A DNA stretch of 64,000 bases from contig LCNZ01000006.1 in NCBI GenBank assembly GCA_001002325.1, forward strand, positions 110,492 to 174,491, read 5' to 3'. This DNA comes from Candidatus Amesbacteria bacterium GW2011_GWB1_47_19 (lineage in GTDB: Bacteria; Patescibacteriota; Microgenomatia; CAZETR01; Amesbacteraceae). The notes under the pieces are model-generated. The model made no database searches, was not told where the DNA came from, and saw only the letters and a list, made by a program, of their open reading frames with translations. Shown here piece after piece: positions 8,777 through 63,449 of this stretch; positions within the stretch are counted from its first letter, which is position 1; each line of letters starts with the position of its first letter. The translations under genes and the position numbers were made by a program.

Positions 8777-9589
8777 ATGTATTTAGTATTTGATGTAGGA
8801 GGGACCACAATGCGGGTCGCGGGCAGTCCGGACGGAAGGGTGTTGGGGGATATGTCAGCGGGACCTACACCAAAGAAATACAAGCAGGGGGTGGCGGCAC
8901 TGATTGAAAAGCTGCGTTGGGCGAGCGGGAATAAGCCGATAGTGAGAACCGGAGGCGGCATTGCCGGGGTGGTAGAACAGAAAAAAGGCCTGCTGCTAGC
9001 CTCTCCTAACCTACCGGACTGGGTGGAAAAGCCTTTGAAAAACGATTTGGAGAAGGGCTTGGGTTGCCAGGTGGTGCTGGAGAATGATGCTGCCGTAGCA
9101 GGTTTGGGAGAAGCAACAGTGGGGGCTGGCAGGAGAAAAAGCATTGTCGCCTATCTGACAGTGGGGACGGGAATCGGCGGAGCCAGGATAGTCAATGGAA
9201 AAATAGATGCCAGAGCAATGGGTTTTGAGCCGGGACAACAGATAATAAATGTTGACGGACAAGTAGATTATTGGGAAAACTTTGCCTCCGGAACGGCAAT
9301 TTTTAAAATTCACGGTAAAAGGGGAGAAAATATCAAAGATCCGCAGGTGTGGGAGAATGAAGCCCGACTCCTGGCCATAGGGGTGCACAACACTTGTGTG
9401 ATGTGGTCCCCGGAGATTGTAATTATCGGCGGTTCGGTAATGCAAAGCGTATCTTTTGAAAAATTGGGAGTGCTGGTGAATGAACAATTGAAGATTTTTA
9501 CTAAAGTACCGGAGATAGTACCGGCTCAGCTGGGGGAAAAGAGCGGATTTTACGGTGGGTTGATACTGGCGGGCGGGGGAGAATTTTAG
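8777..9589 (+). CDS. ROK-family glucokinase
   Basis: LVFDVGGTTMRVA at the N-terminus and the ROK motif LENDAAVAGLGE. The stop TAG (9587-9589) overlaps the first bases of the REP1 repeat. Confidence 0.8.
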   Translation: MYLVFDVGGTTMRVAGSPDGRVLGDMSAGPTPKKYKQGVAALIEKLRWASGNKPIVRTGGGIAGVVEQKKGLLLASPNLPDWVEKPLKNDLEKGLGCQVVLENDAAVAGLGEATVGAGRRKSIVAYLTVGTGIGGARIVNGKIDARAMGFEPGQQIINVDGQVDYWENFASGTAIFKIHGKRGENIKDPQVWENEARLLAIGVHNTCVMWSPEIVIIGGSVMQSVSFEKLGVLVNEQLKIFTKVPEIVPAQLGEKSGFYGGLILAGGGEF

Positions 9590-9616
9590 CCTTCACACTC
9601 CCGGTGTGTGAAGGCT
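9588..9616. repeat. REP1 palindromic element, copy a
   Basis: AGCCTTCACAC-TCCCGGT-GTGTGAAGGCT forms an 11-bp perfect stem with a 7-nt loop. It overlaps the stop codons of both neighbouring genes. Confidence 0.75.
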
Positions 9617-10289
9617 AGGTGTCGATTAGAAGGTGCTTGATGTGATGTAGTTCTCGTTGGTAATCGGCATTGTTTAAGACGAATTGTCTATATGCCTGCC
9701 TATCAGAAAATAACTCCAATATTATTTTGGGGTTACATGTCTGGTTATAATACTCATGTGTAAATTGTTTGAATGAAGAGTACGGATAATTTTCCAGATC
9801 GGAAAATTTGTTAACAATCCCTGCTGAATAGGGATTAAGATGAATATAACGCGAAACGTGAAGAAGTTGTTGCCCATTGTCAATTTTTACAGCTTTGAAT
9901 CTTCCCTGAAATAAAGGTCCGTTTCTTCTTCGATGAGTATTAAAATATCGGGTATAACTGTTGGTAACTTTCCTGAGAAAATCTGTAATACCCTGATCGG
10001 TTAACTGTTTGACAAGCAAATGAAAATGATTTGGCATCAAACAAAAGGCAATAATTTCAATACCTGAAACTCCCTTATCCCTTCGCTGAAGAATTTCCTG
10101 TTTAAGTGATTTGGAAAGACGAATAAAATAAGAAAATCTTACAGGAGAAGCTAACTTTTGATAGTAGACGCAAGTCTCAAGCAGATGGTCATAATCCCGG
10201 GTATCCAAGAAGGTGAGTTGGTTGGTTATACCGCGATTAAAAACATGATAGACTTCCCCCGGAGTTAAAAATACTTCTCTTGAGGGCAC
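9615..10289 (-). CDS. REP-associated tyrosine transposase (RayT) / IS200-IS605 TnpA-like HUH Y1 protein
   Basis: It has the HUH motif (LMPNHFHLLV), the YHVFNRG N-terminal motif and a catalytic Tyr context (VSRYIHLNP). It has a GTG start and is flanked by two REP1 copies. Confidence 0.75.
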   Translation of the reverse strand: MPSREVFLTPGEVYHVFNRGITNQLTFLDTRDYDHLLETCVYYQKLASPVRFSYFIRLSKSLKQEILQRRDKGVSGIEIIAFCLMPNHFHLLVKQLTDQGITDFLRKVTNSYTRYFNTHRRRNGPLFQGRFKAVKIDNGQQLLHVSRYIHLNPYSAGIVNKFSDLENYPYSSFKQFTHEYYNQTCNPKIILELFSDRQAYRQFVLNNADYQRELHHIKHLLIDT

Positions 10290-10308
10290 GAGTATATTGT
10301 AGCACTTT

Positions 10309-10337
10309 AGCCTTCACACTCCCGGTGTGTGAAGGCT
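10309..10337. repeat. REP1 palindromic element, copy b
   Basis: Identical core to copy a. It contains the last five codons and the TGA stop of lon. Confidence 0.75.
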
Positions 10338-12758
10338 GAGGGGGAAAGAGTGTTTGGGACGGGGATGGCCGTTGGATAAGAGGGAGCGCAGGGCGACTTT
10401 GAGAACTTCATCCAGATGAGAGACGAAATGGAATTTGAGATCCCGTTTGACACTCTGGGGGACGTCTTCCAGATCTTTGCGGTTTTCCCGGGGAAGAATG
10501 ACCTGACGGATGCCGGCCCGGTGAGCGGCGATGACTTTTTCCTTTACTCCGCCGATTTCCAGCACTCGACCGCGCAGAGTAATTTCTCCCGTCATGGCCA
10601 AGTCCCGGCGGGTAGGCACTTTAGTAAGGGCTGAAATAATAGCCGTGGCAATGGCGATACCTGCAGACGGCCCATCCTTGGGAACCGCACCTTCGGGAAC
10701 GTGAATATGAATATCCATTTTTTTGTAAAAATCTTCTTTGAGGCCCAGAGTCTGCCAGCGGGTACGAATGTAGGAATAAGCGGCTTTGGCGGATTCTTTC
10801 ATAACATCACCCAGCTGGCCGGTGAGCTGGACATCCCCTTTGCCGGGCATAAGGGCAACTTCAATAAATATGATGTCCCCGCCGGCTTCGGTCCAGGCCA
10901 GGCCGGTACTCATACCGATCTCGTCCTTTTTTTCAGCTAAAGTTTCCGGAAAACGCTGAGGACCTAATAGTTTGCGGATGTCTGCCAGAGCAATTTCCGG
11001 TTTGACGCGCTTTTTTTCAGCCAATTGACGGGCGAGCTTGCGACAAATCTTGGCCAGATGGCGTTCCAAGTCTCGGACTCCGGCTTCGCGGGTATAACGA
11101 CTAGTGATTTCCTTCAGAGCCGCCGGGGACAGGCGTAATTTGTTGCCCATACCGTTGGCTGTCAGCTGTTTTGGCCAGAGGAAATCGGCGGCGATATGCT
11201 GTTTTTCATCCAGAGTGTAGCCGGGGAAGGTAATGACTTCCAGCCGGTCCCTGAGAGCCGGGGGGATAGTATCCAGGAGGTTGGCGGTAGTGATAAACAT
11301 GACCCGGGACAGATCGTACGGCACCTCCAGATAATGATCGGAAAACTCGCGATTTTGTTCGGGATCAAGAGCTTCCAGTAAAGCTGCAGAGGGGTCCCCG
11401 CGGTAATCGTTGGCCAGTTTGTCTATTTCGTCCAACATGAAGACCGGGTTACCGGTGCTGGCATTTTTCACCCCCTGAATGATCCGGCCGGGCATACTGC
11501 CGACGTAAGTCCGGCGATGACCCCGGATTTCTGCTTCGTCACGGACACCGCCAAGAGACACCCGTACGAACTTGCGCCCCAGGGACCTGGCTATGGATTT
11601 ACCGATGGAGGTTTTACCCACACCGGGAGGGCCGACGAAACACAAAATGGTTGGTCCTGATGAGCTTTCTTCCTGAGGCTGACGGGCTTTCAGTTTCATA
11701 ACAGCCAGGTATTCCAGTATCCGCTCTTTGACCTTTTTCAAACCGAAATGGTCCGCGTCCAAAACCTTGGCGGCTTTGTCTATGGAAACATGGTTTGGGG
11801 AAAGATGGCTCCAGGGCATATCCACCAGCCAGTCGAGGTAAGTGTGGATGTAATTGGATTCGGGATTCTGGGGACTCATCTGGGCCAGACGGTTTAATTC
11901 TTTCTCGGCTTTGGCGCGAACAGGGGCGGGCATGCGGGCTTGTTTGATTTTTTTTCTGAAGACGGAAATGTCATCATCTTCCTCACTGTTGTCGGCACCC
12001 AGTTTTTCCAATTCCTCCTGAATGGTTTTTTTGCGCTCGCGCAGTACCTGCTCCCGCATATTTTTTTCAAATTTGGCGTGGGTTTTTGAGGATATGGATT
12101 TTTCCAGCTCCAGAACTTTGACTTCATGAACGAGGTAATGCAACACTTCATCGAGACGTTTGTCCACCGACAGGTTTTCCAGCAAACCCTGTTTGATCTG
12201 GGTGGAAATCTCCAGAGAGTTGGCGACCTGGTCCGCCAGTTCGGAAGCGGAAACTCCGGCCATGAGGCGCATGAATACCGGAAAATCCACGGATTTACCC
12301 AGGTTGAAAGCGTTTTTGAATTCCGTAATCACCTGTCGGGCGAGAGCTACCAGCTGGTCGTTTTCGGTCTGCTGTTCGGGCAAAATGTGAACGGGAGCGG
12401 CGAAAAAAGGTTCGGTGGATGAGTAAGGGCCGATTTTTACCCGGGTAACACCCCGGACCTGAGCCAGAATTTCCTGGCCGTAAGGGGCTACCTGTTCAAT
12501 TGTGCATAAAGTGCCGATCGGATAAAGATCGTCGGGAGTCGGAACAGCGGTAGAATTTTTCTGGGCGACAAAAATTATTTTTTTATCCTGATGAACGGCT
12601 GTTTCTATAGCGGCGTTGCTTTTTGGCCGGCCGAATGTCAGATGAGCTTCAGTGTGAGGAAAAACCACACCTTCACGCAGTGCAACAACCGGGAAAGTCC
12701 GGGGCGTTTGGGGCGCAGGAGTTCCGGGGACAGGGACACGATTTATGGAAAACGCCAT
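10314..12758 (-). CDS. lon: ATP-dependent Lon protease
   Basis: Lon N-domain, AAA+ Walker A (GPPGVGKTS) and the Ser-Lys protease domain ([19 protein letters not shown]). The C-terminal ...HTPGV* is encoded inside REP1. Confidence 0.95.
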
Positions 12759-27755: not shown

Positions 27756-29246
27756 GTAAGGAGAAGAAAGAGGTTGGGAGGTAGCGCTTTCCGCGCCCCC
27801 GCCTTGCCGGCAGGCAGGCGCCTCCGCAGAAAGCGCGTCAAATCCGCCTTTTTTGAAACTTGCGGACAGCCGCCGATCCTTTAAAAAGAAGTTCGAGCCG
27901 ACAGTTTTTGCCATGATAGATAAATCATGGCAACTATTTTTTGCGCGCGCGATTTTGTGCGCTGAAAGCGCACTATTTAACTCAGCGCCGTTTTGGGAAA
28001 CTTCCTTGATTTTGGAGTTGAGAAGCGATTTTGTTTCGATAAGTTCGTTCTTTTTCTTTTGATAATCTTCGGGGCTAACAATTTTGTCTAAATATCCCTC
28101 GAGCAAACGATCTGTTTTTTCCTCTGTTTCTTTTAGTTGCAGTTGATAAGTTGAAATAATACCGGACGATTTCCCTTTTTCGCTGTTTGCGTCTTTATCC
28201 GCCCACTCGAGAAACTTTTTGGCGGCGTGCGGCGGCAATGATGCTCGCAAAACAATCTCTTTTAGTTGTTTTTCAATTTCCCCTTTATCAATATATTTTT
28301 GCGAGCAATTACCCATTTTCTTGGAGCAGCGATAGTAAATATATTCAGCGGTTCTATTGGTTCGGTTATAATACTTGGTATGTTTTTCCGCCGTAATTGC
28401 GCCGCCGCATTCGCCGCACTTCACCAAACCGAGAAAATCAAATAAGTGTTTATTGTTTTTAACTTTTCTTGTTTTTAATTTCACTATATCTTGACATTTA
28501 TCAAAAAGTTTCTTTGAGATTAAAGGCGGGTGATTGCCTTCGTAAAGTTCGCCGCAAAATTTCATCACTCCGTAGTAAAACGGATCGGTCAAAATTCTTT
28601 TGACTTTATCCAAATGAAGTTCATGGCCGGACTTGTTGAAAATTTTGTTTTGGTTGAAAAATTTGCGGATATCAGCATATCCATAGCCGCCGGTAGCAAA
28701 AAGCTGAAAAGCTTTTTGCACATACTTGGCTCGTTTTTTATCAACCTCTATTTTCTTATTAATATTTATATAACCAAACTGAGCTTGATTTGGCCACTCA
28801 CCGCGGCGAAGTTTTTGACGATTGCCTCGCTTTACATTTTCGGAAAGATTATCCACATAATACTTTGATTGTCCAAACGCGATATTGAGCATAAATTTTC
28901 CTTGGGGGGTGTTTTCAAACCAGAATGAGGGAAATTTTAGATCAAGCAATTTTCCGGTATCTAATAAATAGATAATCTTTCCGCCGTCAACAGAGTTTCT
29001 GGCTAAACGGTCTGGATGCCATGATAAAATTCCATCAGCTTTTCCGTCCTCAATTTCTTTTAGGACTTCTGCAAATTTTTCTCTGCCTGGTTCTTTGGCG
29101 GTTTTACTCTCGGTAATAAAAGAAACGATCTTTAATCCTTCTTTTGCGGCGTGTTCTTCAAGTTCGGCAACTTGAGCCTCAATGGACAAAATTTGTCTGT
29201 CCGGTTCATCCGTAGATTTTCTGCAATACGCTATATATTTAATCAT
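27723..29246 (-). CDS. Large serine recombinase (resolvase domain, recombinase domain, zinc ribbon)
   Basis: N-terminal catalytic motif YCRKSTDEPDRQILSIEAQ, a recombinase domain and a CX2C...C zinc ribbon (KCGECGGAIT...YYRCS). The last ~50 codons (approx. 27723-27872) read through IR X' and into the tRNA, so the true C-terminus is probably shorter. Confidence 0.85.
   Translation of the reverse strand: MIKYIAYCRKSTDEPDRQILSIEAQVAELEEHAAKEGLKIVSFITESKTAKEPGREKFAEVLKEIEDGKADGILSWHPDRLARNSVDGGKIIYLLDTGKLLDLKFPSFWFENTPQGKFMLNIAFGQSKYYVDNLSENVKRGNRQKLRRGEWPNQAQFGYININKKIEVDKKRAKYVQKAFQLFATGGYGYADIRKFFNQNKIFNKSGHELHLDKVKRILTDPFYYGVMKFCGELYEGNHPPLISKKLFDKCQDIVKLKTRKVKNNKHLFDFLGLVKCGECGGAITAEKHTKYYNRTNRTAEYIYYRCSKKMGNCSQKYIDKGEIEKQLKEIVLRASLPPHAAKKFLEWADKDANSEKGKSSGIISTYQLQLKETEEKTDRLLEGYLDKIVSPEDYQKKKNELIETKSLLNSKIKEVSQNGAELNSALSAHKIARAKNSCHDLSIMAKTVGSNFFLKDRRLSASFKKGGFDALSAEAPACRQGGGAESATSQPLSSPYWLGDRDSNPN
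27749..27870. repeat. Inverted repeat X' (left copy, reverse complement of X)
   Basis: Its reverse complement matches 29349-29470 with a single mismatch over about 122 bp. It is GC-rich and begins with CCAGCCA, which also forms the tRNA-Gln 3' end. Confidence 0.85.
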
Positions 29247-29348
29247 GGTTGCTTTATCTCTTAAAAGTTCTTTAAACGAACGATAGTGAGCAGTCCCGAT
29301 TATTCATCGGGACAATTTTTGCGTTTTTTCTTCCTTCTTTTTACGGCG

Positions 29349-29470
29349 GCTGTCCGCAAGTTTCAAAAAAGGCGGATTTGACGCGCTTTCTGCGGAGGCG
29401 CCTGCCTGCCGGCAAGGCAGGGGCGCGGAAAGCGCTACCTCCCAACCTCTTTCTTCTCCTTACTGGCTGG
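29349..29470. repeat. Inverted repeat X (right copy)
   Basis: See the X' entry. The ORF 29378..29728 inside it is a spurious frame. Confidence 0.85.
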
Positions 29471-29563
29471 CGGTTTACGAAAAATGTCGAACTTCATTTG
29501 ATTAGCTCGGCCTTCGGCCTCGCTTGCTCCAGCGCGGCGCCCCCACCCGCCGCGCCTACGAAA
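29466..29563. repeat. Inverted repeat Y (left copy)
   Basis: It is a perfect reverse complement of 30829-30926 over about 98 bp. It overlaps X by the 5-bp GCTGG core. Confidence 0.85.
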
Positions 29564-38955: not shown

Positions 38956-39975
38956 ATGTTAAAAATCAAAGACGAGGGGATAATTTTAGAGAAAACAAAT
39001 CTGGAATTTGAAGATAAGGCTGTTTTAAATCCAGCCTGTATTCAGGAGGATGACGTGACTCACATGTTCTATCGGGCAGTTAACCATGATGACATTTCTT
39101 CCATAGGTTATTGCCAACTTAAAGACAAGAAAGTTGTAAAAAGACTTGGGAACCCGGTCCTTTTTCCCGAATTTGATTATGAGAAAAAGGGGGTAGAAGA
39201 TCCAAGAATTACATATTTGGACGGAATCTACTATCTGTTATATACAGTCTATGACGGCAAGGACGCTCTCATCTCCTACGCTACAAGCCGTGATCCTGTT
39301 AATTTTACTAAACAGGGTCTTATCTCGCCGAAAATTTCCTACGATGAGGCAGAGGATATCTTTCGTGGATCGGGAATTAGAGAGAGATATATGATGTTTG
39401 AGAAACTTGTTAAGGAGAGAGTAGGAAGAGACGTTTTACTTTTTGAAAAAGATGCCTCTCTCTTTCCTAAAAAAATAAATAATATGTTTGCACTGTTACA
39501 TAGAATATTACCCGGGATTCAAATTATTTATTTTGAAAGCTTTTCACAACTTACCGATAATTACTGGCGCGATTATTTCAAAAATCTTGGCGATTATATT
39601 GTGCTTGATCCTCTATATTGGTTTGAAGGCCGCAATATCGGTGGCGGTTGCCCTCCCATCGAAACAGAAGACGGGTGGCTGATTATTTATCATGCGGTGG
39701 AGGATACCCCTTTTGGAAAAATCTACCATGCTACCGCAGCCCTTCTTGATCTTAATAATCCCCTAAAGGTTTTAGGGCGATTGGCAGAACCACTGTTTTC
39801 CCCAACGGCTTTCTGGGAAAAAAGCGGCGTTACAGATAATATTGTCTTTCCTACCGGAGCAGTTGTAAGAGACAATAGACTTTACATTTATTATGGGGCT
39901 GCAGACACGGTAATTGCTGCAAAATCCGTTGATCTGTCCGAACTCCTGACCGAGCTTAAGAGCAGGCCTCAATAG
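38956..39975 (+). CDS. Glycoside hydrolase family 130 (beta-mannoside phosphorylase-like)
   Basis: GH130-like five-bladed propeller signatures (NPACIQEDDVTHMFYRAV, VEDPRITYLDGIYYLLYT, IYYGAADT). Confidence 0.7.
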   Translation: MLKIKDEGIILEKTNLEFEDKAVLNPACIQEDDVTHMFYRAVNHDDISSIGYCQLKDKKVVKRLGNPVLFPEFDYEKKGVEDPRITYLDGIYYLLYTVYDGKDALISYATSRDPVNFTKQGLISPKISYDEAEDIFRGSGIRERYMMFEKLVKERVGRDVLLFEKDASLFPKKINNMFALLHRILPGIQIIYFESFSQLTDNYWRDYFKNLGDYIVLDPLYWFEGRNIGGGCPPIETEDGWLIIYHAVEDTPFGKIYHATAALLDLNNPLKVLGRLAEPLFSPTAFWEKSGVTDNIVFPTGAVVRDNRLYIYYGAADTVIAAKSVDLSELLTELKSRPQ

Positions 39976-39977
39976 TT

Positions 39978-42052
39978 GTGATAGCATTCCTTTCCACTTT
40001 TCCACCGCGGCAGTGCGGAATGGCCACCTTTACTGCCGACCTTGCCAATTCTGTTGATCAGATGTTTGGGCCGTTTATTGAATCCAAAATTGTCGCAATG
40101 AATACGAATGACATAAGTCATCTGCTTTATTCAGACAAAGTAATTTTTCAAATAAGTCAACCAAATGAAAGAGACTACGTTAACACTGCTTACAATCTCA
40201 ATCAGCTCGAAAGGATAAAACTTGTCAATATTCAACATGAATTTGGTATCTTCGGAGGAGAATACGGCTCACATCTGCTTCTATTCTTGGAAAAACTTCA
40301 GAAACCGGCTGTTATCACCCTGCATACTGTTCTACCCAATCCTAATGAAAGAATGCTGGGTGTTGTTCAAACGGCGATGAAGTATTCGAAAGGAATGATC
40401 GTGATGACTAATCGCGCAAAGGAGTTGCTCAAGAGCGATTACGGGTTGGATCAAAACCATATCCAAGTTATTCCTCACGGAATCCATCATGTTCCATACA
40501 GGACCAGTGAGAACGCCAAGTCTAGTCTCGGATTTTCCGGAAGATTGGTTCTTTCCACTTTTGGACTTCTGAATTCCGGTAAAGGGATTGAATATGTGAT
40601 TGAGTCTCTTCCACCGGTAGTGGAAAAGTTTACAAATGTTTTGTTCCTGGTTATTGGTGTCACCCACCCCGTTGTTCTGAAGCAAGAGGGAGAAAATTAC
40701 CGTAATTTTCTTATCAACAAAGTTTATGAACTTGGCTTAAGCGACCACGTTCTTTTTTATGTAGCGGCCGTCCGGTAATATCCACAGCCTTTGCCCAGGC
40801 CAAAGAAGACATTACTGACAATGTAGGAATGTTGGTTGACTTCAATAAACCACAAGCTTATACCGATGCCGTCATCAAATTATTAAGCGACGATGAATTG
40901 CGTCTGCAAATGGGTAAAAACGCTTATTTCCGCACAAGATACAGGACCTGGCAAAATGTTGCCCTTTCTTATCTGAAATATTTCTCACAATTTGTGCCGG
41001 AGCTGATCCCGGGACAAAGAAAACTTCCACCCATAAAGCTAGCGCATTTGGTTAAATTGACAGACGATTTCGGTGTTATTCAGTTTGCCAAGCTTACGGA
41101 GCCTGACAATTCCTCCGGGTACACTTTGGATGATAATGCCCGCGCCTTAATTGTTGCCACCCTCCATTACAAAAAATTCAGAACTCCATTTTCGCTAAAA
41201 CTTGCCTACACATATCTAAACTTCCTTTGTCGGGTAATCAAACCCGATGGTTACTTTAACAATTATGTCGGTCCCAACCGCGCTGTTGACGAACAGAGAA
41301 ATCGTCAGGAAAACCTGGAAGATGCCAGCGCCAGAGCCTTGTATGCTCTTGCCCAGGTTTCAACCAGCAAACAAATCCCCAAACGTTTAAGAAAACAAGC
41401 TCATTCCATCTTTGAAAAAAGTTTTCGGAAAAACGTGGCTTTCTCCTCACCCCGCGCGATTGCCTCTTACATTAAAGCTCTTAGTCTTTTGCTTTCGAAG
41501 TGGAAAGAACCCAAGACCCTCGCTGAACTGATACACCTTTGTGAACAACTCGTCACTTTATACGACAAGACTCACACTCCGGAATGGGAGTGGTTCGAAC
41601 CTTATTTAACATATTCAAATGCCATACTACCGGAAGCACTTGTCCTCGGGTATAAAACAACTGGCGAGAAAAAATATCTTGAAATAGCTCAAAAAACTTT
41701 CGACTTCTTAATTAAACATACCTTTAAGGATGACATTTATATTTCTATCGGCCAAAGCGGCTGGTTTCCCAAGGAAGGGGAAAGACAATATTTTGACCAA
41801 CAGCCCGAGGACGCCGCTGCCACTGTAGAGGCTCTCAATACCATGTTCCAAGTAACAAAAGGGAAGCACTATAAAGAGTTGGCACACAAGACATTTAACT
41901 GGTTTCTGGGGGCCAATGTTCTTGGTCAGGTCGTATATGAATGGTCTACAGGAGGGTGTTACGACGGGGTGGGTGAAAAATATATTAACTTAAATCAAGG
42001 TGCCGAATCTACTATTTCTTATCTGTTGGCCCGCCTTTCTTTAGAGAGTTAA
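39978..42052 (+). pseudogene. Disrupted GT4 glycosyltransferase fused to a C-terminal alpha-helical domain (frameshift plus missing EX7E segment)
   Basis: The GT4 N-domain and the start of the C-domain end at a stop (40776). The +2 frame, open from 40730, continues with GRPVISTAF...GMLVDFNKP...LLSDDELRLQMGKNA, the GT4 C-terminal tail. The ~40 aa that normally carry ...ADVFVxPS..EGFG..LEAMAxG are absent. About 330 aa of an additional helical domain follow. Confidence 0.5.
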
Positions 42053-45601: not shown

Positions 45602-45741
45602 GTTGTGGCTTTTTTATACCCCATATATTAAAAACTTCTCCGGAATCAAACTGATTACTCTGCCTTCCCCGTCACCGCGCTATGCGGCCCTAAGTCTGCA
45701 GGCCAAATATACCCTGTATCTCAAACTTCTACCGCAATTGT

Positions 45742-45767
45742 AGCCTTCACATACCGGAAGTGTGATG
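45742..45767. repeat. REP1 palindromic element, degenerate copy
   Basis: AGCCTTCACA-TACCGGAAG-TGTGATG. It shares the left arm with REP1 but the right arm has diverged. It lies just 3' of the stop of the 45772-46836 gene. Confidence 0.5.
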
Positions 45768-45771
45768 TTGA

Positions 45772-46836
45772 TTATTCCAGGGGGCCCATGGGGAAGGAAG
45801 CCTGTGATATTTCGTTGGCTAAATTTATAACCGGTACCCGGGTGCGGGCCCGGAAATCGTAAACGTAAATCTGCTGGGACCATTGATTGTAGTAGGAAAC
45901 TTCTGACACAGACACCCGGTTGTTATCCAGCCATCGGCCGCAGTATGAATACTGCTGTCCGGAACTGAGTGTCTTTTTTGCCGCCAGATCGTAAAGGATA
46001 TAACCGAAATATCCGGAACTGCCGTTTCCGAAACACACTTTGTTACCGTCGGCATTGGCTATCACTTTTCCGGCATATTCGGCAGCCGTCGCTTCCGTAT
46101 CCGTAATATCCCCGGTAATTCTGTTTATCTGCATTAAATGGACGGGACAGCAGTCCTCTTCCGGTATCCAAAAAAGATAATTATTGTTATTGGCCGGATA
46201 TGCACCGTAGCCGGTATCTACTTCCGCCAGTTTCTCCGCCTCCGGCCAGATCCGGTAAATCCCGTCGCCCATGCTCGCCTCTAATGTGTCGTTATTCCAC
46301 CAGACCCCCATCTCCCCGTTCAGGTCGTCCGGAATTGTCCCCTGATATACTACCTCTGCCTTGATCTCTTCCTTATACGGCTTACTTGCCGGCATATTCG
46401 TGATCTTTACGACCGCAAATTTGTCATAAATTACCGCCGCCAGCCATTTGCTGTTTTTATCCCAGGATATCAATTCATTGTCCGGATACCTGTTTTCCGG
46501 ATCTTTCATTACTTTCCAGATTTCCGCCAGAGACTCCCTCTGGACAAAATAATCCGAAGTTTGTTCCGTAATATATAACTCAAAGGTTTCCACCCCCTCC
46601 CGGGCATAATCGGCCAGGTATGCCAGGTACTTCCCGTCCGGTGACAGTGTCCCCACATCGATATCCCTCCAGATACCGCGCCTTCTGTCCGGCGTCGGTT
46701 CAATATCCTGGCATTTCGGACACGGCTCGCTGACCTTAACATTTTTCTTGATATTTAAGGCCAAAATCCCGTACCCGGCCCAAAGTATGACTGCCGTCAT
46801 CCCCGCCAACACTACCACCTTACTCTTCACAATCAT
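45772..46836 (-). CDS. Membrane-anchored hypothetical protein with a TolB-like beta-propeller signature
   Basis: An N-terminal TM helix and LSPDGKYLAY-type repeats. Confidence 0.45.
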   Translation of the reverse strand: MIVKSKVVVLAGMTAVILWAGYGILALNIKKNVKVSEPCPKCQDIEPTPDRRRGIWRDIDVGTLSPDGKYLAYLADYAREGVETFELYITEQTSDYFVQRESLAEIWKVMKDPENRYPDNELISWDKNSKWLAAVIYDKFAVVKITNMPASKPYKEEIKAEVVYQGTIPDDLNGEMGVWWNNDTLEASMGDGIYRIWPEAEKLAEVDTGYGAYPANNNNYLFWIPEEDCCPVHLMQINRITGDITDTEATAAEYAGKVIANADGNKVCFGNGSSGYFGYILYDLAAKKTLSSGQQYSYCGRWLDNNRVSVSEVSYYNQWSQQIYVYDFRARTRVPVINLANEISQASFPMGPLE

Positions 46837-48374: not shown

Positions 48375-48501
48375 TGTATTTTGAACATAATCCAGAGGCG
48401 GTAATAAGTGCCCAATCGGCGGGGATAATTTCATATCATTATGATCCCGAGAAAAAGGATTTGGAGAGCTTGAAGGAGTTTTTGGACAAAAACACTACCA
48501 G

Positions 48502-48543
48502 TTAATAAGGACAATCCTTTAAGGATAATCCTTTGGGACTATA
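48502..48543. repeat. Operator-like palindromic repeat, copy A (contains the 13-bp palindrome AAGGATAATCCTT)
   Basis: TTAATAAGGACAATCCTTTAAGGATAATCCTTTGGGACTAT. A near-identical copy is at 49731-49772. Confidence 0.55.
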
Positions 48544-48557
48544 CAAATTCCCGTGGT

Positions 48558-48586
48558 TAGCCTGCACACACCGGGAGTGTGAAAGC
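48558..48586. repeat. REP1 palindromic element, inverted-orientation copy
   Basis: AGCCTGCACAC-ACCGGGA-GTGTGAAAGCT. The loop is the reverse complement of the REP1 loop. Confidence 0.6.
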
Positions 48587-48637: not shown

Positions 48638-49459
48638 ATGGTTAAAAAGATTATCTTTATTGCTCTGGCAGTTTTGGTTTCGTTCCCACTGCTATATCTC
48701 CCCGCCAAGGCCAAGAATGCTGATCCACCGGACTTACCGGATTCAGATCTACCGGAAAATAACGGCGTTTACCCGGTACCAGGCCATCCGGAACTTAAAC
48801 TTCACGTTCTTTCCCATCCCGCCCGGGGCAGTCGACCTGCCAAACCTACTCCTACTCCCACATCCGCTCCGGTTTTGAATTGCAGTCTTGAAGATCCCGA
48901 TTCTTCGTCGGTCAGCGGTGTTACCGGCTGGTATCTGCCCCCAAGTTTTTCTTACCTTCTCAATTCCTCCAGTGTTCCTGCCTCTGTCGGAGCTGAAAAT
49001 TTAACCTGGATAGCCCAAAACGGTTATTTGCAGTGGGCTGAGGCTTTGAGCGGACAGGTATCCGTCAGCTTCGCTGGTCAGACCTTATCCACCCGGGCGA
49101 GGCTGGACGGCCAAAATATCATTACCTGGGGCAGGGCGGCAAGCGGGACTTTGGGGGTGACTTACATCTGGACCTACGGCGATGGAGAAGTTGCCGAGGC
49201 AGATACCATTATGAATAAAGGTTATGCTTGGAGTTGGTCGGATCCCGATACCTGGCACGGATCTGTCTGCGCTTACCCCGGATCGTATGACGCCCAAAAT
49301 ATCCTGACTCATGAATTGGGCCACTGGTTCGGAACAGATGACGACTATGATCAGGAGTTTGAAAATAATACCATGTATGGTTTCGGCGACGTTTTGGAAA
49401 CCAAAAAGGATACGCTCACTAATGGGGACATAACTGCCGTCCGTTCCATCTACCAGTAA
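48638..49459 (+). CDS. Secreted zinc metalloprotease, metzincin-like (HExxHxxGxxD, snapalysin/matrixin-like)
   Basis: Signal peptide, HELGHWFGTDD, and a Met-turn (NTMYGFG). Confidence 0.7.
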   Translation: MVKKIIFIALAVLVSFPLLYLPAKAKNADPPDLPDSDLPENNGVYPVPGHPELKLHVLSHPARGSRPAKPTPTPTSAPVLNCSLEDPDSSSVSGVTGWYLPPSFSYLLNSSSVPASVGAENLTWIAQNGYLQWAEALSGQVSVSFAGQTLSTRARLDGQNIITWGRAASGTLGVTYIWTYGDGEVAEADTIMNKGYAWSWSDPDTWHGSVCAYPGSYDAQNILTHELGHWFGTDDDYDQEFENNTMYGFGDVLETKKDTLTNGDITAVRSIYQ

Positions 49460-49730
49460 ATTGATTTCGGTCATTGGGATTAAATGATTACTTTATGGAA
49501 AGAATAAGAGGGAGGTTTTTAAAAATTTAATTATTCAAAGCGATACTCACCAATTCAACGAGTATCTAATAAAAAAGGGGGGGGAAACAATATATGAAAA
49601 CAGAAGTAACAACATCTTACGGTCCGGAAAGCCGGGATGATTTGGCTCACTTTCTATTGGGGTCTATATAGAAAGAGATAGTTCTTGGGAGGGACCGGGT
49701 ACTATAAGCAAAGGGCTTGGGGGCTGCTAG

Positions 49731-49772
49731 TTAATAAGGTCGATCCTTTAAGGATAATCCTTTGAGGCTATT
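49731..49772. repeat. Operator-like palindromic repeat, copy B
   Basis: TTAATAAGGTCGATCCTTTAAGGATAATCCTTTGAGGCTAT. It is preceded by CCGGGTACTATAAGCA, which is duplicated from 48349. Confidence 0.55.
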
Positions 49773-53455: not shown

Positions 53456-53998
53456 CTAAAATAAATTAGCCTGAAGATTTGAGGGGGGTGTACCTGGTTC
53501 GTTAAAAATACATTCTCCTTCCCGAAGCAAAATGGTAATTGTTTTGATTTTCCCCCCTCTTTTGCAACCAAAAATCAATTTACCGCCGGACACTGTACAA
53601 CCTTTAATAATCACATCATTTACTCCCTCAAGTAATCCCTGATTATTTTGTGAAATGTACAGACTGGCAGGCTGTTCCGGGGAAAAAGTACTTCTGCCAC
53701 CTCTCCAAATTTCAGGAAAGTATCTTAACTGTAATTCGTGATCCGGTGGTCCTGCGGTCAGGTTAAATCCATATCTTTTTTCGGTCCACCCACCCGCCTT
53801 TTGATATTCTTCAAGCACAAATCTCCAATCAGCAAAATAGTAGGTCGCATCAATTGCAGTTATTAATCCTTTTATCTGAAACGCAGTTTCCAGCGTTTCG
53901 GGTTTCCCGGGGTCGATTCCAATCGCCTCGACGTCATTGTGTAATGCGCTAAAAAAATTACCATATATTACCTGCTTATTTAACTCAACCAATGGCAT
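53456..53998 (-). CDS. Hypothetical protein (180 aa)
   Basis: Clean ORF with no motif recognised. Confidence 0.4.
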   Translation of the reverse strand: MPLVELNKQVIYGNFFSALHNDVEAIGIDPGKPETLETAFQIKGLITAIDATYYFADWRFVLEEYQKAGGWTEKRYGFNLTAGPPDHELQLRYFPEIWRGGRSTFSPEQPASLYISQNNQGLLEGVNDVIIKGCTVSGGKLIFGCKRGGKIKTITILLREGECIFNEPGTPPSNLQANLF

Positions 53999-54048
53999 AC
54001 TGTGCTTATAAATGAATTTAAGGTGTTTTACAACGTTTTTTATGAAAT

Positions 54049-54079
54049 TAGCCTCGCTACCTGAAAGGTGACGAGGCTA
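54049..54079. repeat. REP2 palindromic element, copy 1
   Basis: TAGCCTCG-CT-ACC-TGAAA-GGT-GA-CGAGGCTA is a two-tier hairpin. It lies 3 nt 3' of the NUDIX stop. Confidence 0.65.
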
Positions 54080-54081
54080 CA

Positions 54082-54576
54082 CTACTCCAAGTCCTGCGCA
54101 GTTAATTGCTCTCCGGTAGAGAATTTTTTAACTTTATCCAAATGGCCAAGCAGAAGGGTTATTAAGTCCGGTACCAAGTCAAGGTGGATTAATTCGTCGG
54201 GAGAAAAAAATTTTATATTCTGCCCTTCGTTTCCTTTCCTGATATGAGATATCTGTTCAGGAGTCAACGCGACCGTGCCGATATATTTATGGTGACCCTG
54301 ATCGTCACCCGCTAACAATTTGCCCAGGATTCGGGTTTGACCGGGCAGGAGAGTAATATTAGCTTCCTCAAGCAGTTCACGCCCGAGCGTCTGATCCGGA
54401 GTTTCTCCCAATTCCCCTACACCGCCCAGAAGCCCCCATTTGTCGGGATGGGGGATATTTGGGTTATTATCCCTGAGCTTGAGCAAGAGTTCACCGTCCG
54501 GTGAAACAACCAAAGCTCCGCAGGAAAAGGGATATGTCCCAATCTTCGTCTCAACATCAACAGCTTCCATTACCAT
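54082..54576 (-). CDS. NUDIX hydrolase (MutT-like)
   Basis: Nudix box GLLGGVGELGETPDQTLGRELLEEANI. Confidence 0.75.
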   Translation of the reverse strand: MVMEAVDVETKIGTYPFSCGALVVSPDGELLLKLRDNNPNIPHPDKWGLLGGVGELGETPDQTLGRELLEEANITLLPGQTRILGKLLAGDDQGHHKYIGTVALTPEQISHIRKGNEGQNIKFFSPDELIHLDLVPDLITLLLGHLDKVKKFSTGEQLTAQDLE

Positions 54577-54660
54577 AACCTCGGGTATTTTACTATAAAT
54601 ACGGGTTATGGGGATTAATGACGATTTGTGTTCCGGTTGAAATGTTGGTGCGAAATGTCT

Positions 54661-54689
54661 AGCCTCGCTACCTGAAAGGTGGCGTGCCT
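54661..54689. repeat. REP2 palindromic element, copy 2
   Basis: AGCCTCGCTACCTGAAAGGTGGCGTGCCT, in the same orientation as copy 1. Confidence 0.65.
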
Positions 54690-54733
54690 AAAGGTTCTAG
54701 TGACCAGGTTTTAGAGGTGGTATTCTGTTTGAT

Positions 54734-55843
54734 ATGGGAAACAGGATCGAGAACAGCCGAGTGGAGGTAGACATGGTAAAAAATTACGGGACTATCGAGT
54801 ACGAGAGATGTGAAAGCGGAGAAATGGTGATGGTGACAACCCGATGGGGGGTAAAGACGGAGACTCCGGCAATTGAAGGAGACTACCCCACGGGTTTTTC
54901 ACATATCTGGAGGAGCGGACCCGAACTGAGCAAACCGGAAAGGGAGAGGCAAGAGCTGGAGGCATTTGCGGAAAGCCTGCGGCTGGTGACCGATAAATCA
55001 CCGGCGCTATTGGCTGTCGGGTCCGGATCCCCGATATTCCCGGATTATGCCGGGGAAATGGCGGCCCGAATGGGATGGAGTCAAACGGAGACCAGCAATG
55101 ATTATCTGGCCTGCAACAGCGGAGTTGAAGCATTGCGAAGAGTCCTGATGGATCCCCGATTCCTGCCCCGAGGAGTACTTGAGGGACGGGAGGTGATTGT
55201 CGGAGGATGGGAGGGGCTGACGAGAATGGTGGACCACGGCGACCCCGACAATACCGATCCCCTTTCCCGGCGGGTGTTTAGTAACGGCGGCGCACTTTTA
55301 AAATTTGTGCCCGGGAGAGACTTGTCTTTGGTAACAGAAGTATTTTTTTCCAGGGAGGATGACGGGAACCTGGCGGCAGTTATGCCATACACCATAGATC
55401 CGGACGGGCCGCTGGTGCAAATTGAAGGGAATACCAAAAAAATCAGGTTACCGGTACCGGAGCCGGGGGTATCGATATGGATGAAGGCCAAACCTACTGC
55501 CAAAATGTTTGTCCGGGCTTTTGAAGAAGGGATAGAAATGTTGTGGGCGAAGTATCTGCAAGGGATAGCGGACAAAATCATTGCCGACAAACCCATATCC
55601 TTGGTGACCGGACACCATCCGAGCACCGGACCATTTCTTTTGACCCAAAAAATACTGGAGCGGGTGTGCGGAATCAGCGCGGAAAGATATCCCTGGGTGG
55701 TAGATGACGGCAATTCCAGCGGGGCGACGGCACCCAAAGCGCTGAATAAACTATTGGGGCGGGTCCGGCCGGGAGAACGGATAATGTATGTAGGTTATGG
55801 GGGAGGGATTAGTTTTACGGGCATAATTATGGACCGGGGATAA
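54734..55843 (+). CDS. Thiolase-fold condensing-enzyme-like protein (FabH / KAS III-like)
   Basis: Cys in an ACNSG context, the GNSSGATAPKAL motif (compare FabH GNTSAASIP) and C-terminal YVGYGGGISFTG (compare GFGGGLTWG). Confidence 0.55.
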   Translation: MGNRIENSRVEVDMVKNYGTIEYERCESGEMVMVTTRWGVKTETPAIEGDYPTGFSHIWRSGPELSKPERERQELEAFAESLRLVTDKSPALLAVGSGSPIFPDYAGEMAARMGWSQTETSNDYLACNSGVEALRRVLMDPRFLPRGVLEGREVIVGGWEGLTRMVDHGDPDNTDPLSRRVFSNGGALLKFVPGRDLSLVTEVFFSREDDGNLAAVMPYTIDPDGPLVQIEGNTKKIRLPVPEPGVSIWMKAKPTAKMFVRAFEEGIEMLWAKYLQGIADKIIADKPISLVTGHHPSTGPFLLTQKILERVCGISAERYPWVVDDGNSSGATAPKALNKLLGRVRPGERIMYVGYGGGISFTGIIMDRG

Positions 55844-56781: not shown

Positions 56782-58602
56782 ATGCCTGAAATACGAAATA
56801 TAGCCGTGATTGCCCATGTGGACCACGGCAAAACCACGCTGGTAGATGCGCTTCTTAAGCAGACGCATGTTTTCCGGGAAAACGAGGCGGAAATGAGCCA
56901 GACCCTGATCATGGACAGCAACGAGCTTGAACGGGAACGGGGAATCACGATTTTGGCCAAAAACTGCTCTGTGAGGTATAGGGACGTAAAAATCAACATT
57001 ATTGACACGCCCGGACACGCGGATTTTTCCGGGGAAGTGGAAAGAACCCTGGGGATGGCCGACGGGGCACTATTAATAGTAGACGCGGCGGAAGGGCCTA
57101 TGCCCCAGACCCGGTTTGTCCTGAAAAAAGCGCTGGAGCTGAAACTGGCGATTATTGTGGTGATTAATAAAATCGATAAAAGGTTTTCCAGGCCGGCGGA
57201 AACCCTGAAGAAAATTGAAACACTGTTTCTGGAACTGGCGGCAGACCACGCCCAGCTGGAATTCCCGGTGTTGTATGCCGTAGGACGGGAAGGAACAGTT
57301 TTTGACCGGATACCAGAGACTGCGGATGCAAAAGGCGACGTGACTCCCCTGCTGGAAGCGATCGTAGCGCATGTTCCCCCAGCCCGGAACCGACCGGGGC
57401 CGTTTAAAATGGTGATCAGCTCGTTGGATTGGGATCCGCACCTGGGGAGGATTGCCGTGGGCAAGATTTACCGGGGAAAAATTGAAAAAGGAATGAAAGT
57501 GGTAACGGCCAACCGGCTGACCAACATCAGAACCGTGGAAAAACTGATGGTATACGAAGGACTGAAGCGAACGGAAACGCAGGCGGAAGAAAGTGGGGAA
57601 ATTGTCTCCCTGTGCGGACTGTCTGATGTAAAAATCGGAGAGACGGTGTGCGATCCGGCGGAAATCACGGCACTGCCCGGAGTAGAGATAGGAGAGCCGA
57701 CACTGCACATCCTGATAGGTCCGAACACCTCACCGTTTGCCGGACGTGAAGGCCAATTTACCACAGGCAGGCAGTTGGAAGAACGGCTGCTACGGGAGCT
57801 GGAAAGCAACCTGAGTTTGCGGGTGGAAAAAAACGGTGGAAAATTTATTGTCTCCGGACGGGGTGAGCTGCATCTGGCGATACTTCTGGAAACCATGCGC
57901 CGGGAAGGCTATGAATTGGAGGCCGGTAAACCGGAAGTAATTGTTAAAAAAGGAGCCGGAGAGACGCTGGAACCAGTGGAAGAAGTGTCCGTGATCGTAC
58001 CCCATCAACATTTGGGAATAATTAGTGAAGAATTCGGCAAGAGGCTGGGAAAACTTTTGAAAATGGACCCCATATCGGAGCAGGAAACGGAATTTATATA
58101 CCATATTCCGACCCGGGCGGTATTGGGCCTGAGAAGCCAGTTGATGACGGCCACCCGGGGAACCATGATTTACTCGAGTGTGATTTTGGGTTACGAAAAG
58201 ATGGGTAAACCGGTTACCGGGAACCGGAGGGGGGTACTGGTAGCCAGCGAGCCCGGACAAGCCCTGGCTTACGGCCTGGAAAATGCCCAAGGGAGGGGGG
58301 CGACGTTTATCGAACCGGCGACTGCGGTGTACGAGGGAATGATTGTAGGCATAAACGCCAAAGAAGGCGATATTTCCATCAATGTTTGCAAAGGAAAGAA
58401 GCTGACCAATATGCGGTCCAAATCCCACGACAGCGTCATCCAGCTGACACCGCCGGTAATATTGACTCTGGAACAAGCGCTGGATTTTCTGGAAGACGAC
58501 GAACTGCTGGAAATTACCCCCCTAGCCCTGAGGCTGCGTAAAAAACACCTGACGGAATTGGAGAGACGTAGAGCCGGCAGGCTTCACACTCCCGGTGTGT
58601 GA
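56782..58602 (+). CDS. typA: Translational GTPase TypA/BipA
   Basis: AHVDHGKTTLVDALL G1 motif and the five-domain EF-G-like architecture. The C-terminal ...HTPGV* is encoded inside REP1. Confidence 0.95.
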   Translation: MPEIRNIAVIAHVDHGKTTLVDALLKQTHVFRENEAEMSQTLIMDSNELERERGITILAKNCSVRYRDVKINIIDTPGHADFSGEVERTLGMADGALLIVDAAEGPMPQTRFVLKKALELKLAIIVVINKIDKRFSRPAETLKKIETLFLELAADHAQLEFPVLYAVGREGTVFDRIPETADAKGDVTPLLEAIVAHVPPARNRPGPFKMVISSLDWDPHLGRIAVGKIYRGKIEKGMKVVTANRLTNIRTVEKLMVYEGLKRTETQAEESGEIVSLCGLSDVKIGETVCDPAEITALPGVEIGEPTLHILIGPNTSPFAGREGQFTTGRQLEERLLRELESNLSLRVEKNGGKFIVSGRGELHLAILLETMRREGYELEAGKPEVIVKKGAGETLEPVEEVSVIVPHQHLGIISEEFGKRLGKLLKMDPISEQETEFIYHIPTRAVLGLRSQLMTATRGTMIYSSVILGYEKMGKPVTGNRRGVLVASEPGQALAYGLENAQGRGATFIEPATAVYEGMIVGINAKEGDISINVCKGKKLTNMRSKSHDSVIQLTPPVILTLEQALDFLEDDELLEITPLALRLRKKHLTELERRRAGRLHTPGV

Positions 58603-58607
58603 AAGCT
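58579..58607. repeat. REP1 palindromic element, copy e
   Basis: AGGCTTCACAC-TCCCGGT-GTGTGAAAGCT. It contains the typA stop codon. Confidence 0.7.
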
Positions 58608-58653
58608 GAATGTGAGCAAACCGACATTGTTTTTTGGCGGATTATGATACACT

Positions 58654-62446: not shown

Positions 62447-62902
62447 TTACTTCATCATCCATCCACCCCGGCCCATCATTCCTCCACCATGACCCCCAAA
62501 ACCTCCGTTTAGATATTTGAGGTCAATGTTGTTCTGAGTTGCCCAGGTTTGTAATTCCTGCCTCTGGGCCTGCATTTTGGCCTGAAGCTCGGCATGCTTG
62601 TCCCAGAGCAACTGTTTTTGGGCGGCGGTAATTTCTCCGGCAGTAACCGCTTCGGTCAGACGGGCCTCGTAACGGGCCTGCATTTCTTTCTGCCGGTCCG
62701 ACTGCACTTCATCCATGACCGATTGGACATCGGACTCTTTAAGCCCGAATTTTTGCATAAATTTAGTCACCAGCGGCGGATATTTTGAATCCGTAGTGGC
62801 GGCAGAAACACGGGAAATCCCCATCCAGGCGGTACCGGCCAGGGTAATGACCAAAGCCGGTACCAGTAACAGTTTCTTTGAAATTTTCATTCTTCTTATC
62901 AC
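62447..62902 (-). CDS. Hypothetical secreted protein with a Gly/Met-rich C-terminus
   Basis: Signal peptide, a Gln/Ala-rich helical region, then GGFGGHGGGMMGRGGWMMK. Confidence 0.4.
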   Translation of the reverse strand: MIRRMKISKKLLLVPALVITLAGTAWMGISRVSAATTDSKYPPLVTKFMQKFGLKESDVQSVMDEVQSDRQKEMQARYEARLTEAVTAGEITAAQKQLLWDKHAELQAKMQAQRQELQTWATQNNIDLKYLNGGFGGHGGGMMGRGGWMMK

Positions 62903-62982: not shown

Positions 62983-63015
62983 CTAGGCTCGCTACCTGAA
63001 AGGTGGCGTGGCTAG
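62983..63015. repeat. REP2 palindromic element, copy 3
   Basis: CTAGGCTCGCTACCTGAAAGGTGGCGTGGCTAG. It overlaps the stop codon of the 63012-63449 gene. Confidence 0.65.
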
Positions 63016-63449
63016 AGGGTAGGGGTGAGATTTTCCGGGAAAGCGCGGAGGACGGGATTGAGCTGGATGTTTTGGGCAGTAACACTGCCATCTGAGTTTT
63101 CCGTTCCGAACACCGAGACTTTTTCCCCCACTTTCAATTCTTCGGGTGTACCCGAAGCGGCTTTGTTGATCTCTGTTTTGTCGGATAAAATGACGATTTT
63201 GCTGCCTCCGTCATTGAGTTTGACGGTGAAGGATTTGTCATCCCGATTGATAATTTCCCCGGCGACGGGACGGAATCCCATACGATTACCATTACCGCTG
63301 GGCACACCCCTGAACTGCAGGTTACCATCGGGACGGTTGAACCCCGTGGTGCGTTTTGACGTCTGATATTTCATACCGGCAAAAAAGCCTCCGCCGCCGG
63401 CGATAGCGACTGCAGCAATTATTAATAAAATTACAGTTTGTTTATTCAA
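63012..63449 (-). CDS. Hypothetical exported protein (DUF5666-like)
   Basis: Signal/TM segment and a repetitive beta-rich region. Confidence 0.4.
   Translation of the reverse strand: MNKQTVILLIIAAVAIAGGGGFFAGMKYQTSKRTTGFNRPDGNLQFRGVPSGNGNRMGFRPVAGEIINRDDKSFTVKLNDGGSKIVILSDKTEINKAASGTPEELKVGEKVSVFGTENSDGSVTAQNIQLNPVLRAFPENLTPTL

Follow-up and report, generated by a model that had tools for sequence, protein, structure and literature searches.

A low-copy hairpin repeat in a Candidatus Amesbacteria genome is probably a sub-family of a REP/RAYT system

We analyzed a stretch of 64,000 nucleotides from Candidatus Amesbacteria bacterium GW2011_GWB1_47_19 (contig LCNZ01000006.1, positions 110,492 to 174,491; hereafter the window), in which three 31-nt near-palindromes, here called REP2, are found on the + strand. 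We propose that REP2 is a low-copy sub-family of the same system of repetitive extragenic palindromes (REPs) and REP-associated tyrosine transposase (RAYT) as a second hairpin repeat of this genome, REP1, and we consider this reading likely. The original prediction, made from the sequence of the window alone, had preferred to see in REP1 and REP2 either two sub-families of one element or the targets of a shared protein. This preference is supported by the presence in the window of a RAYT-like gene flanked by REP1. The sub-family version is further supported by the scores of REP2 against the REPs that flank orthologues of the transposase and by compensated stem pairs between REP1 and REP2.

The three REP2 copies were confirmed at 54049-54079, 54660-54690 and 62984-63014, all in the same orientation, as had been claimed. 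When the window was searched with the pattern GCCTCGCTACCTGAAAGGTG, allowing up to three mismatches, exactly three matches were obtained on the + strand (54051, 54662 and 62986), and no match appeared in any of 100 shuffled sequences. With spacings of 611 and 8,324 bp, every copy is solitary. The repeats are thus real, although calling three copies a family is generous. The claim that all of them begin with TAGCCT and end with AGGCTAG did not hold either: copy 1 ends with AGGCTAC, copy 2 with TGCCTAA, and copy 3 begins with TAGGCT, which puts its 5' arm outside the proposed consensus, and ends with TGGCTAG. In copy 1 (-18.7 kcal/mol, z = -6.3), a C.A mismatch separates an outer stem of 8 bp from an inner one of 5 bp. 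Copies 2 and 3 display an uninterrupted 8-bp inner stem (CGCTACCT/AGGTGGCG) and an outer stem with two mismatches, with folding energies of -14.1 kcal/mol (z = -2.3) and -20.4 kcal/mol (z = -3.1), respectively. By its length and its energies of -14 to -20 kcal/mol, REP2 falls within the definition of REPs as hairpin-forming imperfect palindromes of 20-40 nt. The GC skew is positive throughout on the + strand, which is probably the lagging-strand template and carries all three copies; this strand bias is not evidence, since only three copies are concerned and REP1 occurs in both orientations.

All three copies are also extragenic. Copy 1 lies between the stop codon of a NUDIX hydrolase gene (54082-54084, minus strand; 2-nt gap) and the start of the next minus-strand gene (53998). 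Copy 2 occupies the divergent gap between the NUDIX start (54576, minus) and the start of a KASIII-like gene (54734, plus), at 83 nt and 44 nt from the respective start codons. Copy 3 precedes the minus-strand gene at 62902 by about 80 nt, and its last three bases (CTA) form the TAG stop codon of a minus-strand DUF5666 gene (63012-63449). The distance to a stop codon is thus 0-2 nt for copies 1 and 3. REPs have been described as lying downstream of coding regions (PMC3733652), and the placement of REP2 and REP1, intergenic and at stop codons, is typical of REPs.

REP1 (TAGCCTTCACACTCCCGGTGTGTGAAGGCTA, 31 nt) is present in five copies in the window and in a sixth one in the 9.4 kb to its right (extension L030). 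Perfect copies at 9587 and 10308 flank the transposase gene on both sides, and the four others (45741, 48558, 58578 and the one in L030) lie away from it. The encoded protein matches the Pfam family Y1_Tnp (PF01797, E = 7e-10), which is also its annotation in sister assemblies, and its sole NCBIfam match is REP_Tyr_transpos (NF047646, E = 1.8e-15), with 57.1 bits for a cutoff of 80. The two histidines of the motif MPNHFH and the tyrosine of RYIHxNP are invariant in 36 homologues. The AlphaFold model of the protein (predicted local distance difference test, pLDDT, 88) has as its best match in the PDB the structure of TnpA-REP from Escherichia coli with a REP hairpin (4er8; E = 3.5e-8, TM 0.73), whereas the IS200/IS605 TnpA structures (ISDra2, IS608 and IS200) match at about 1e-4, that is about 3,000-fold more weakly. 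Since REP1 flanks the gene and the protein evidence is of the REP type, REP1 can be taken as the REP of this transposase.

The transposase gene is present in a single copy in about 83 kb of genome, and relatives with a transposase of 53-57% identity have retained the Lon-RAYT-ROK neighbourhood. RAYTs are known as vertically inherited, single-copy genes (PMC5581495); the conserved neighbourhood fits this description, and the transposase looks domesticated. With a threshold of E <= 1e-5, its homologues number at least 7,964. The best 120 of these are 48-57% identical and 221-241 aa long, and those that carry a name come mostly from the candidate phyla radiation (CPR), namely Amesbacteria, Levybacteria, Gottesmanbacteria and "Patescibacteria group". 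Judged by these matches, the group appears to be a very large CPR-centred clade. A rearrangement was also observed among relatives: the RAYT gene and its flanking REPs are inverted in loci L046 and L047 with respect to locus L049, within the same Lon...ROK neighbourhood, and both types occur in JGI sample 3300032516. The RAYTs of the two types are only 60% identical, which suggests inversion or replacement of the hairpin-bounded RAYT unit.

The comparison with orthologous loci links REP2 to these transposases. We read, in RAYT-sense orientation, the hairpins that flank transposase homologues 51-57% identical to ours. They are GTAGCCTTCACACC-TTTAA-GGTGTGA in L038 (also written TAGCCTTCACACC-TTTAA-GGTGTGA), CTAGCCTTCACACC-TCGGG-GGTGTGA in L046 (also written TAGCCTTCACACC-TCGGG-GGTGTGA), GGCCTTCACACC-TTAGA-GGTGTGA in L049, and CCACC-TCTAA-GGTGG in L048 and L051. 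A CACC-N5-GGTG apex is found at all five of these loci and the TAGCCT head at two (L038 and L046). Read on the minus strand, REP2 is (G)TAGCCTCGTCACC-TTTCA-GGTAGCG, with the head and a CACC-TTTCA-GGT apex in the same register as in the REPs of the relatives; 17 of its first 21 positions match the L038 REP. We then ran on the window, with filters off, a covariance model (R1) built only from 13 foreign RAYT-flanking REPs. Sixteen of its 20 matches are the five REP1 and three REP2 loci on both strands, and REP2 therefore resembles the hairpins that flank RAYT orthologues (best scores of 16.4, 13.4 and 8.9 bits). Another match, at 40605-40633 (13.5 bits), lies inside an open reading frame (39978-40778), has a different stem and was treated as due to chance.

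REP1 and REP2 can also be compared directly. They are of equal length and have identical 6-nt ends, TAGCCT...AGGCTA, with variation among the REP2 copies; two independent palindromes would have a 6-nt arm in common with a probability of about 2e-4. At stem pairs 7, 8 and 9, both sides have changed between REP1 and REP2 and pairing is kept (T-A to C-G, C-G to G-C and A-T to C-G). Overall, 89.8% of the cells are paired, versus 27-48% when the partners are slid. In our reading, REP2 would have kept the ancestral CACC-N5-GGTG apex, and REP1 the ancestral TTCACAC stem with a different apex.

Table 1. Hairpin repeats and genes of the window discussed in the text. Positions are those of the window; R1 is the covariance model of foreign RAYT-flanking REPs.
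Feature	Position	Strand	R1 score	Sequence or remarks
REP2 copy 1	54049..54079	+	8.9/8.1 bits	TAGCCTCGCTACCTGAAAGGTGACGAGGCTA
REP2 copy 2	54660..54690	+	16.4 bits, E = 0.013 (+ strand)	TAGCCTCGCTACCTGAAAGGTGGCGTGCCTA
REP2 copy 3	62984..63014	+	13.4/13.3 bits, E = 0.13	TAGGCTCGCTACCTGAAAGGTGGCGTGGCTA
REP1, perfect copy	9587..9617		17.9 bits	3' end of RAYT gene
REP1, perfect copy	10308..10338		17.9 bits	18 nt upstream of RAYT start
REP1, degenerate copy	45741..45771		16.5 bits	abuts stop codon of 354-aa minus-strand gene (45772-46836)
REP1, copy with reversed loop	48558..48588		12.8 bits	gap upstream of 273-aa gene (48638-49459)
REP1, copy	58578..58608		15.2 bits	overlaps 3' end of BipA gene (56782-58602)
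RAYT-like Y1/HUH tyrosine transposase, 224 aa	9615..10289	-		candidate REP-recognising protein
NUDIX hydrolase gene	54082..54576	-		Pfam NUDIX, E = 5e-12; between REP2 copies 1 and 2; context, not a demonstrated part of the element

Several points weigh against the assignment of REP2 to this REP/RAYT system. REP2 comes no closer than 44 kb to the transposase gene, which only REP1 flanks. Operationally, REP families have been defined as having one or more members no farther than 1 kb from a transposase gene (PMC6006769); REP2 has none, and only REP1 has such copies, at 9587 and 10308. The tag of REP2 is also unusual. In canonical REPs it is an unpaired GTAG or GTGG that lies 0-2 nt from the hairpin foot, on its 5' side (PMC6006769, PMC3733652). 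In REP2 it is (T/C)TAG on the + strand, not GTAG, and TAG pairs in this genome with a 3' CTA as part of the stem. TAG itself is present in all copies; the base before it is T or C on the + strand, and a G is seen only in copy 1, on its minus strand. In the relative L038, the head is GTAGCCT and unpaired. Moreover, the REP2 copies are singletons in one orientation, with none of the close inverted pairs that define REPINs (REP doublets) and bacterial interspersed mosaic elements (BIMEs), and copy 1 is weak against R1, with only 8-9 bits. No evidence of insertion was obtained either, as our searches with the NUDIX and KASIII-like homologues did not find an orthologous locus devoid of REP2.

The low copy number has to be added to these points. 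In about 82.7 kb of this genome (the window with extensions L030 and L034), the three known copies of REP2 were the only ones, while tens to hundreds of copies per genome are the usual yardstick for REPs. RAYT groups with only about 12-14 copies of the flanking 16-mers exist (PMC5581495). The exact REP2 core had no other locus in the GTDB species representatives or the JGI metagenomes, of which the former apparently do not include the source genome and the latter contain it only as two short contigs. Among the GTDB representatives, CGCTACCTGAAAGGTGNCG gave 18 singletons, non-palindromic and from unrelated phyla, which by our own estimate is about what chance predicts for 18 specified bases. 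In the JGI metagenomes, TCGCTACCTGAAAGGTGNCG returned the same three loci, on the two short contigs of this organism, and four non-palindromic matches.

One would also wonder whether REP2 has a cognate transposase of its own. A second, REP2-cognate transposase elsewhere in the genome is possible, because related genomes can carry two Y1 transposases with their own hairpins. In some CPR relatives, a second and different Y1 transposase is indeed encoded next to the first or within a few kb of it (L048, 15959-16615; L051, 3547-4338), each of the two having an unrelated hairpin of its own at its flanks, such as CCTACAGGGTCCGTCCTTGTAGG.

The first alternative is that REP2 is a functional RNA hairpin, such as a stabiliser of mRNA 3' ends, a signal akin to a terminator or a stem-loop in untranslated regions bound by a protein, kept by selection on transcripts, its resemblance to REP1 being incidental or historical. 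The location of copies 1 and 3, 0-2 nt after the stop codons of minus-strand genes, agrees with this idea, as does the stability of REP2 on both strands (-11.9 to -20.4 kcal/mol). REPs have been reported elsewhere as RNA elements (PMC3733652), and such a role can coexist with a REP origin. On the other hand, copy 2 lies between divergent genes and so follows the 3' end of none. The transcript of the minus strand, the sense strand for NUDIX and DUF5666, contains an additional A.C mismatch. No T/U tract follows REP2 on either strand and no copy was among the sites returned by a terminator scan, which speaks against an intrinsic (Rho-independent) terminator. With Rfam 15, only two tRNAs were found in the window at the gathering score, and nothing in the region 53900-54800 even at E <= 10. 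Finally, the three variable pairs of REP2 are all one-sided, making or breaking a pair (C.C, G.G, T.T and C.A mismatches), and none is compensatory, in a set of three copies that has no statistical power. The original prediction had kept a small structured RNA motif as its alternative and had taken a lack of further copies and of compensatory changes among the copies as refuting it; we found no further copies in the sequence searched and no compensatory changes within REP2. We therefore regard an RNA motif as unlikely.

A second alternative gives a meaning to the position of the NUDIX gene. REP2-NUDIX-REP2 would be a cargo cassette bounded by hairpins and transposable as single-stranded DNA, like IS200/IS605 or palindrome-associated transposable elements (PATEs), mobilised in trans and twin of REP1-RAYT-REP1. 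Both units indeed consist of two hairpins in direct orientation around one minus-strand gene, over 611 bp and 721 bp, respectively, and the inverted RAYT unit of the two related populations indicates that hairpin-bounded units rearrange. Among 5.8 billion proteins, the NUDIX protein had no orthologue outside the species at E <= 1e-10, only same-species variants, and none was detected for the KASIII-like gene (54734-55843), whose next-best match is 34% identical; both results are compatible with recent acquisition. However, the unit is present in one copy only and the third REP2 copy is solitary. The exact NUDIX protein was found on contig LCIP01000002.1 (GCA_000998545.1) in two sister assemblies and in Rifle-aquifer metagenomes, and the 23 NUDIX contigs that we read all have the same context, with neither an empty site nor a second insertion. 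In one of the loci, from the same strain (L044), the NUDIX gene carries a 45-bp in-frame deletion.

The sister genome L038 provides a simpler view of this arrangement. Between 9965 and 12097, beside its RAYT gene, four REPs occupy four consecutive intergenic gaps, with spacings of 709, 641 and 752 bp, and alternate two head types (GGCTTT... and TAGCCTT...). As REPs can fill consecutive gaps 641-752 bp apart, the bracketing of a small gene is expected in a compact genome. The statement that REP2 brackets the NUDIX gene is correct as to positions, copy 1 lying 2 nt beyond the stop codon and copy 2 83 nt ahead of the start codon, but this bracketing has no demonstrated meaning. The NUDIX gene is probably flanked merely because both of its intergenic gaps received a REP2 copy, and we hold the cassette to be improbable. 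If it were true, a "domesticated" RAYT would act as a shuttle of small host genes in an ultra-reduced CPR genome, excising and reinserting them as single-stranded DNA.

A third alternative, to which we give slightly less credit still, is that REP2 is a double-stranded palindromic operator for a dimeric transcription factor that regulates the NUDIX gene, the KASIII-like gene and the gene at 62902. The near-perfect 31-bp palindrome, the location of copy 2 in a divergent promoter region close to both start codons, and that of copy 3 upstream of the 62902 gene would fit such a role. Copy 1, however, sits just after a stop codon, and the mismatches are located in the arms, the parts that a dimer would recognise. 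The loop (TGAAA) is asymmetric and one orientation is kept, neither of which a symmetric operator needs. The head, length and apex that REP2 has in common with the transposase-flanking REPs are explained more simply by a REP origin. Two further candidates were rejected by inspection: a CRISPR-like array, given the irregular spacings of the copies, and an integron attC site, such sites being at least about 57 nt long with RYYYAAC/GTTRRRY cores.

For REP2 as a REP, a mechanism can be proposed on the model of TnpA-REP from E. coli, for which both binding and cleavage require the tetranucleotide at the 5' foot of the hairpin (PMC3479197), and of the IS200/IS605 paradigm. In single-stranded DNA, for example on the lagging-strand template, the 31-nt unit would fold into a hairpin. 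A Y1/HUH transposase would bind this hairpin and, at its foot, the conserved head N-TAG-CCT, and would cleave and rejoin the DNA nearby, so that copies would build up in short intergenic gaps, typically at stop codons. By analogy, the transposase of the window, or an unseen paralogue, may bind or move REP2. The features common to REP1 and REP2, namely the head, the length and the hairpin, would be the recognition determinants, while the inner stem could diverge freely provided that compensatory changes preserved its pairing. REP1 and REP2 could thus have the same head, tail and length either because the protein reads these parts or because both descend from one ancestral REP. Once transcribed, a REP hairpin might play a secondary role as a stabiliser of mRNA 3' ends.

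REP hairpins of this genome also take part in the ends of genes. The REP1 copy at 9587 provides with its first TAG the stop codon of the ROK gene (8777-9589, plus) and with its last CTA that of the RAYT gene. The terminal TAG/CTA of the REP head is accordingly a stop codon for ROK (9587-9589), RAYT (9615-9617) and DUF5666 (63012-63014), and in L038, too, the RAYT gene stops at the TAG of GTAGCCT. The REP1 copy at 10308 contains the end of the Lon gene (10314-12758, minus strand), and the last seven codons and the TGA stop of BipA come from the copy at 58578. Three unrelated genes, BipA (58578-58602), Lon (10314-10338) and an SdpI-like gene (L030, 3619-3643), run 22-25 nt into REP1 in this way, and their proteins have in common a REP1-encoded tail, x-LHTPGV*, whose stop is the TGA of the REP1 3' arm. 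In either orientation (ACT CCC GGT or ACA CCG GGA), the REP1 loop codes for Thr-Pro-Gly. Near the REP1 copy at 48558, we observed a 48-nt direct repeat, 88% identical between its two copies (CTACCAGTTAATAAGGACAATCCTTTAAGGATAATCCTTTGGGACTAT; 48495-48542 and 49724-49771), which adjoins this REP1 copy and brackets the 273-aa gene. Elsewhere in the window, the region from about 28000 to 40000 has a low G+C content (0.35-0.41 versus 0.45-0.55 elsewhere) and a disturbed GC skew, and may be an acquired island.

To our knowledge, nearly all characterised REP/RAYT systems come from Proteobacteria and a handful of other phyla. Our literature search returned no paper connecting REP/RAYT with Patescibacteria or the CPR, the sole co-mention concerning a RAYT at an archaeal locus, and none that links the large CPR-centred transposase clade to REPs. 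A REP/RAYT system, as which we read these repeats and the RAYT-like gene, is a known kind of element, here in an ultra-small CPR bacterium. One CPR genome with two REP sub-families that share only the head, the length and the hairpin offers a natural comparison for what the transposase reads, and a syntenically conserved RAYT-like gene of the CPR is found with co-diverging hairpins at its flanks. Ultra-reduced genomes would thus tolerate such intragenomic replicators, to the point that essential genes take stop codons and a 7-residue tail from REPs. For annotation, this reading accounts for conserved intergenic hairpins of CPR genomes that one might otherwise take for RNA motifs.

A parallel can be drawn with the GTAG-tagged REPs of E. 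coli and Pseudomonas and their RAYT/TnpA-REP (4er8). In both cases, short imperfect palindromes are intergenic and lie mostly just downstream of genes, and the hairpin carries at its 5' foot a conserved head that contains TAG. The repeats flank a single Y1/HUH transposase gene, whose product has here a predicted fold nearest to TnpA-REP and whose neighbourhood is kept across diverged relatives. The system described here differs by its host, a CPR bacterium of the Microgenomates group, and by its protein, which has 224 aa, versus 165 aa for that of 4er8, with 15% identity over the structural alignment and a score below the NCBIfam cutoff. Its head, N-TAG-CCT, is paired with the 3' AGGCTA, which places the tag inside the stem. 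Its repeats are singletons instead of inverted pairs, six REP1 and three REP2 in about 83 kb, and REP2 does not flank the transposase.

The REPINs of Pseudomonas fluorescens SBW25 (PMC3116915) likewise comprise several REP families in one genome, whose stems have diverged while the hairpin is kept. Each SBW25 family, however, has its own RAYT and forms REP doublets, whereas we see one RAYT in the available sequence and no doublets. With IS200/IS605 elements and PATEs, finally, the system shares subterminal hairpins that flank a gene in direct orientation, the Y1/HUH superfamily and a single-strand chemistry. Unlike IS200/IS605, whose left-end and right-end hairpins differ and which are multi-copy and horizontally mobile, it has identical flanking hairpins and a transposase that is single-copy and syntenic, and whose fold matches the TnpA of IS200/IS605 about 3,000-fold less well in E-value than it matches TnpA-REP.

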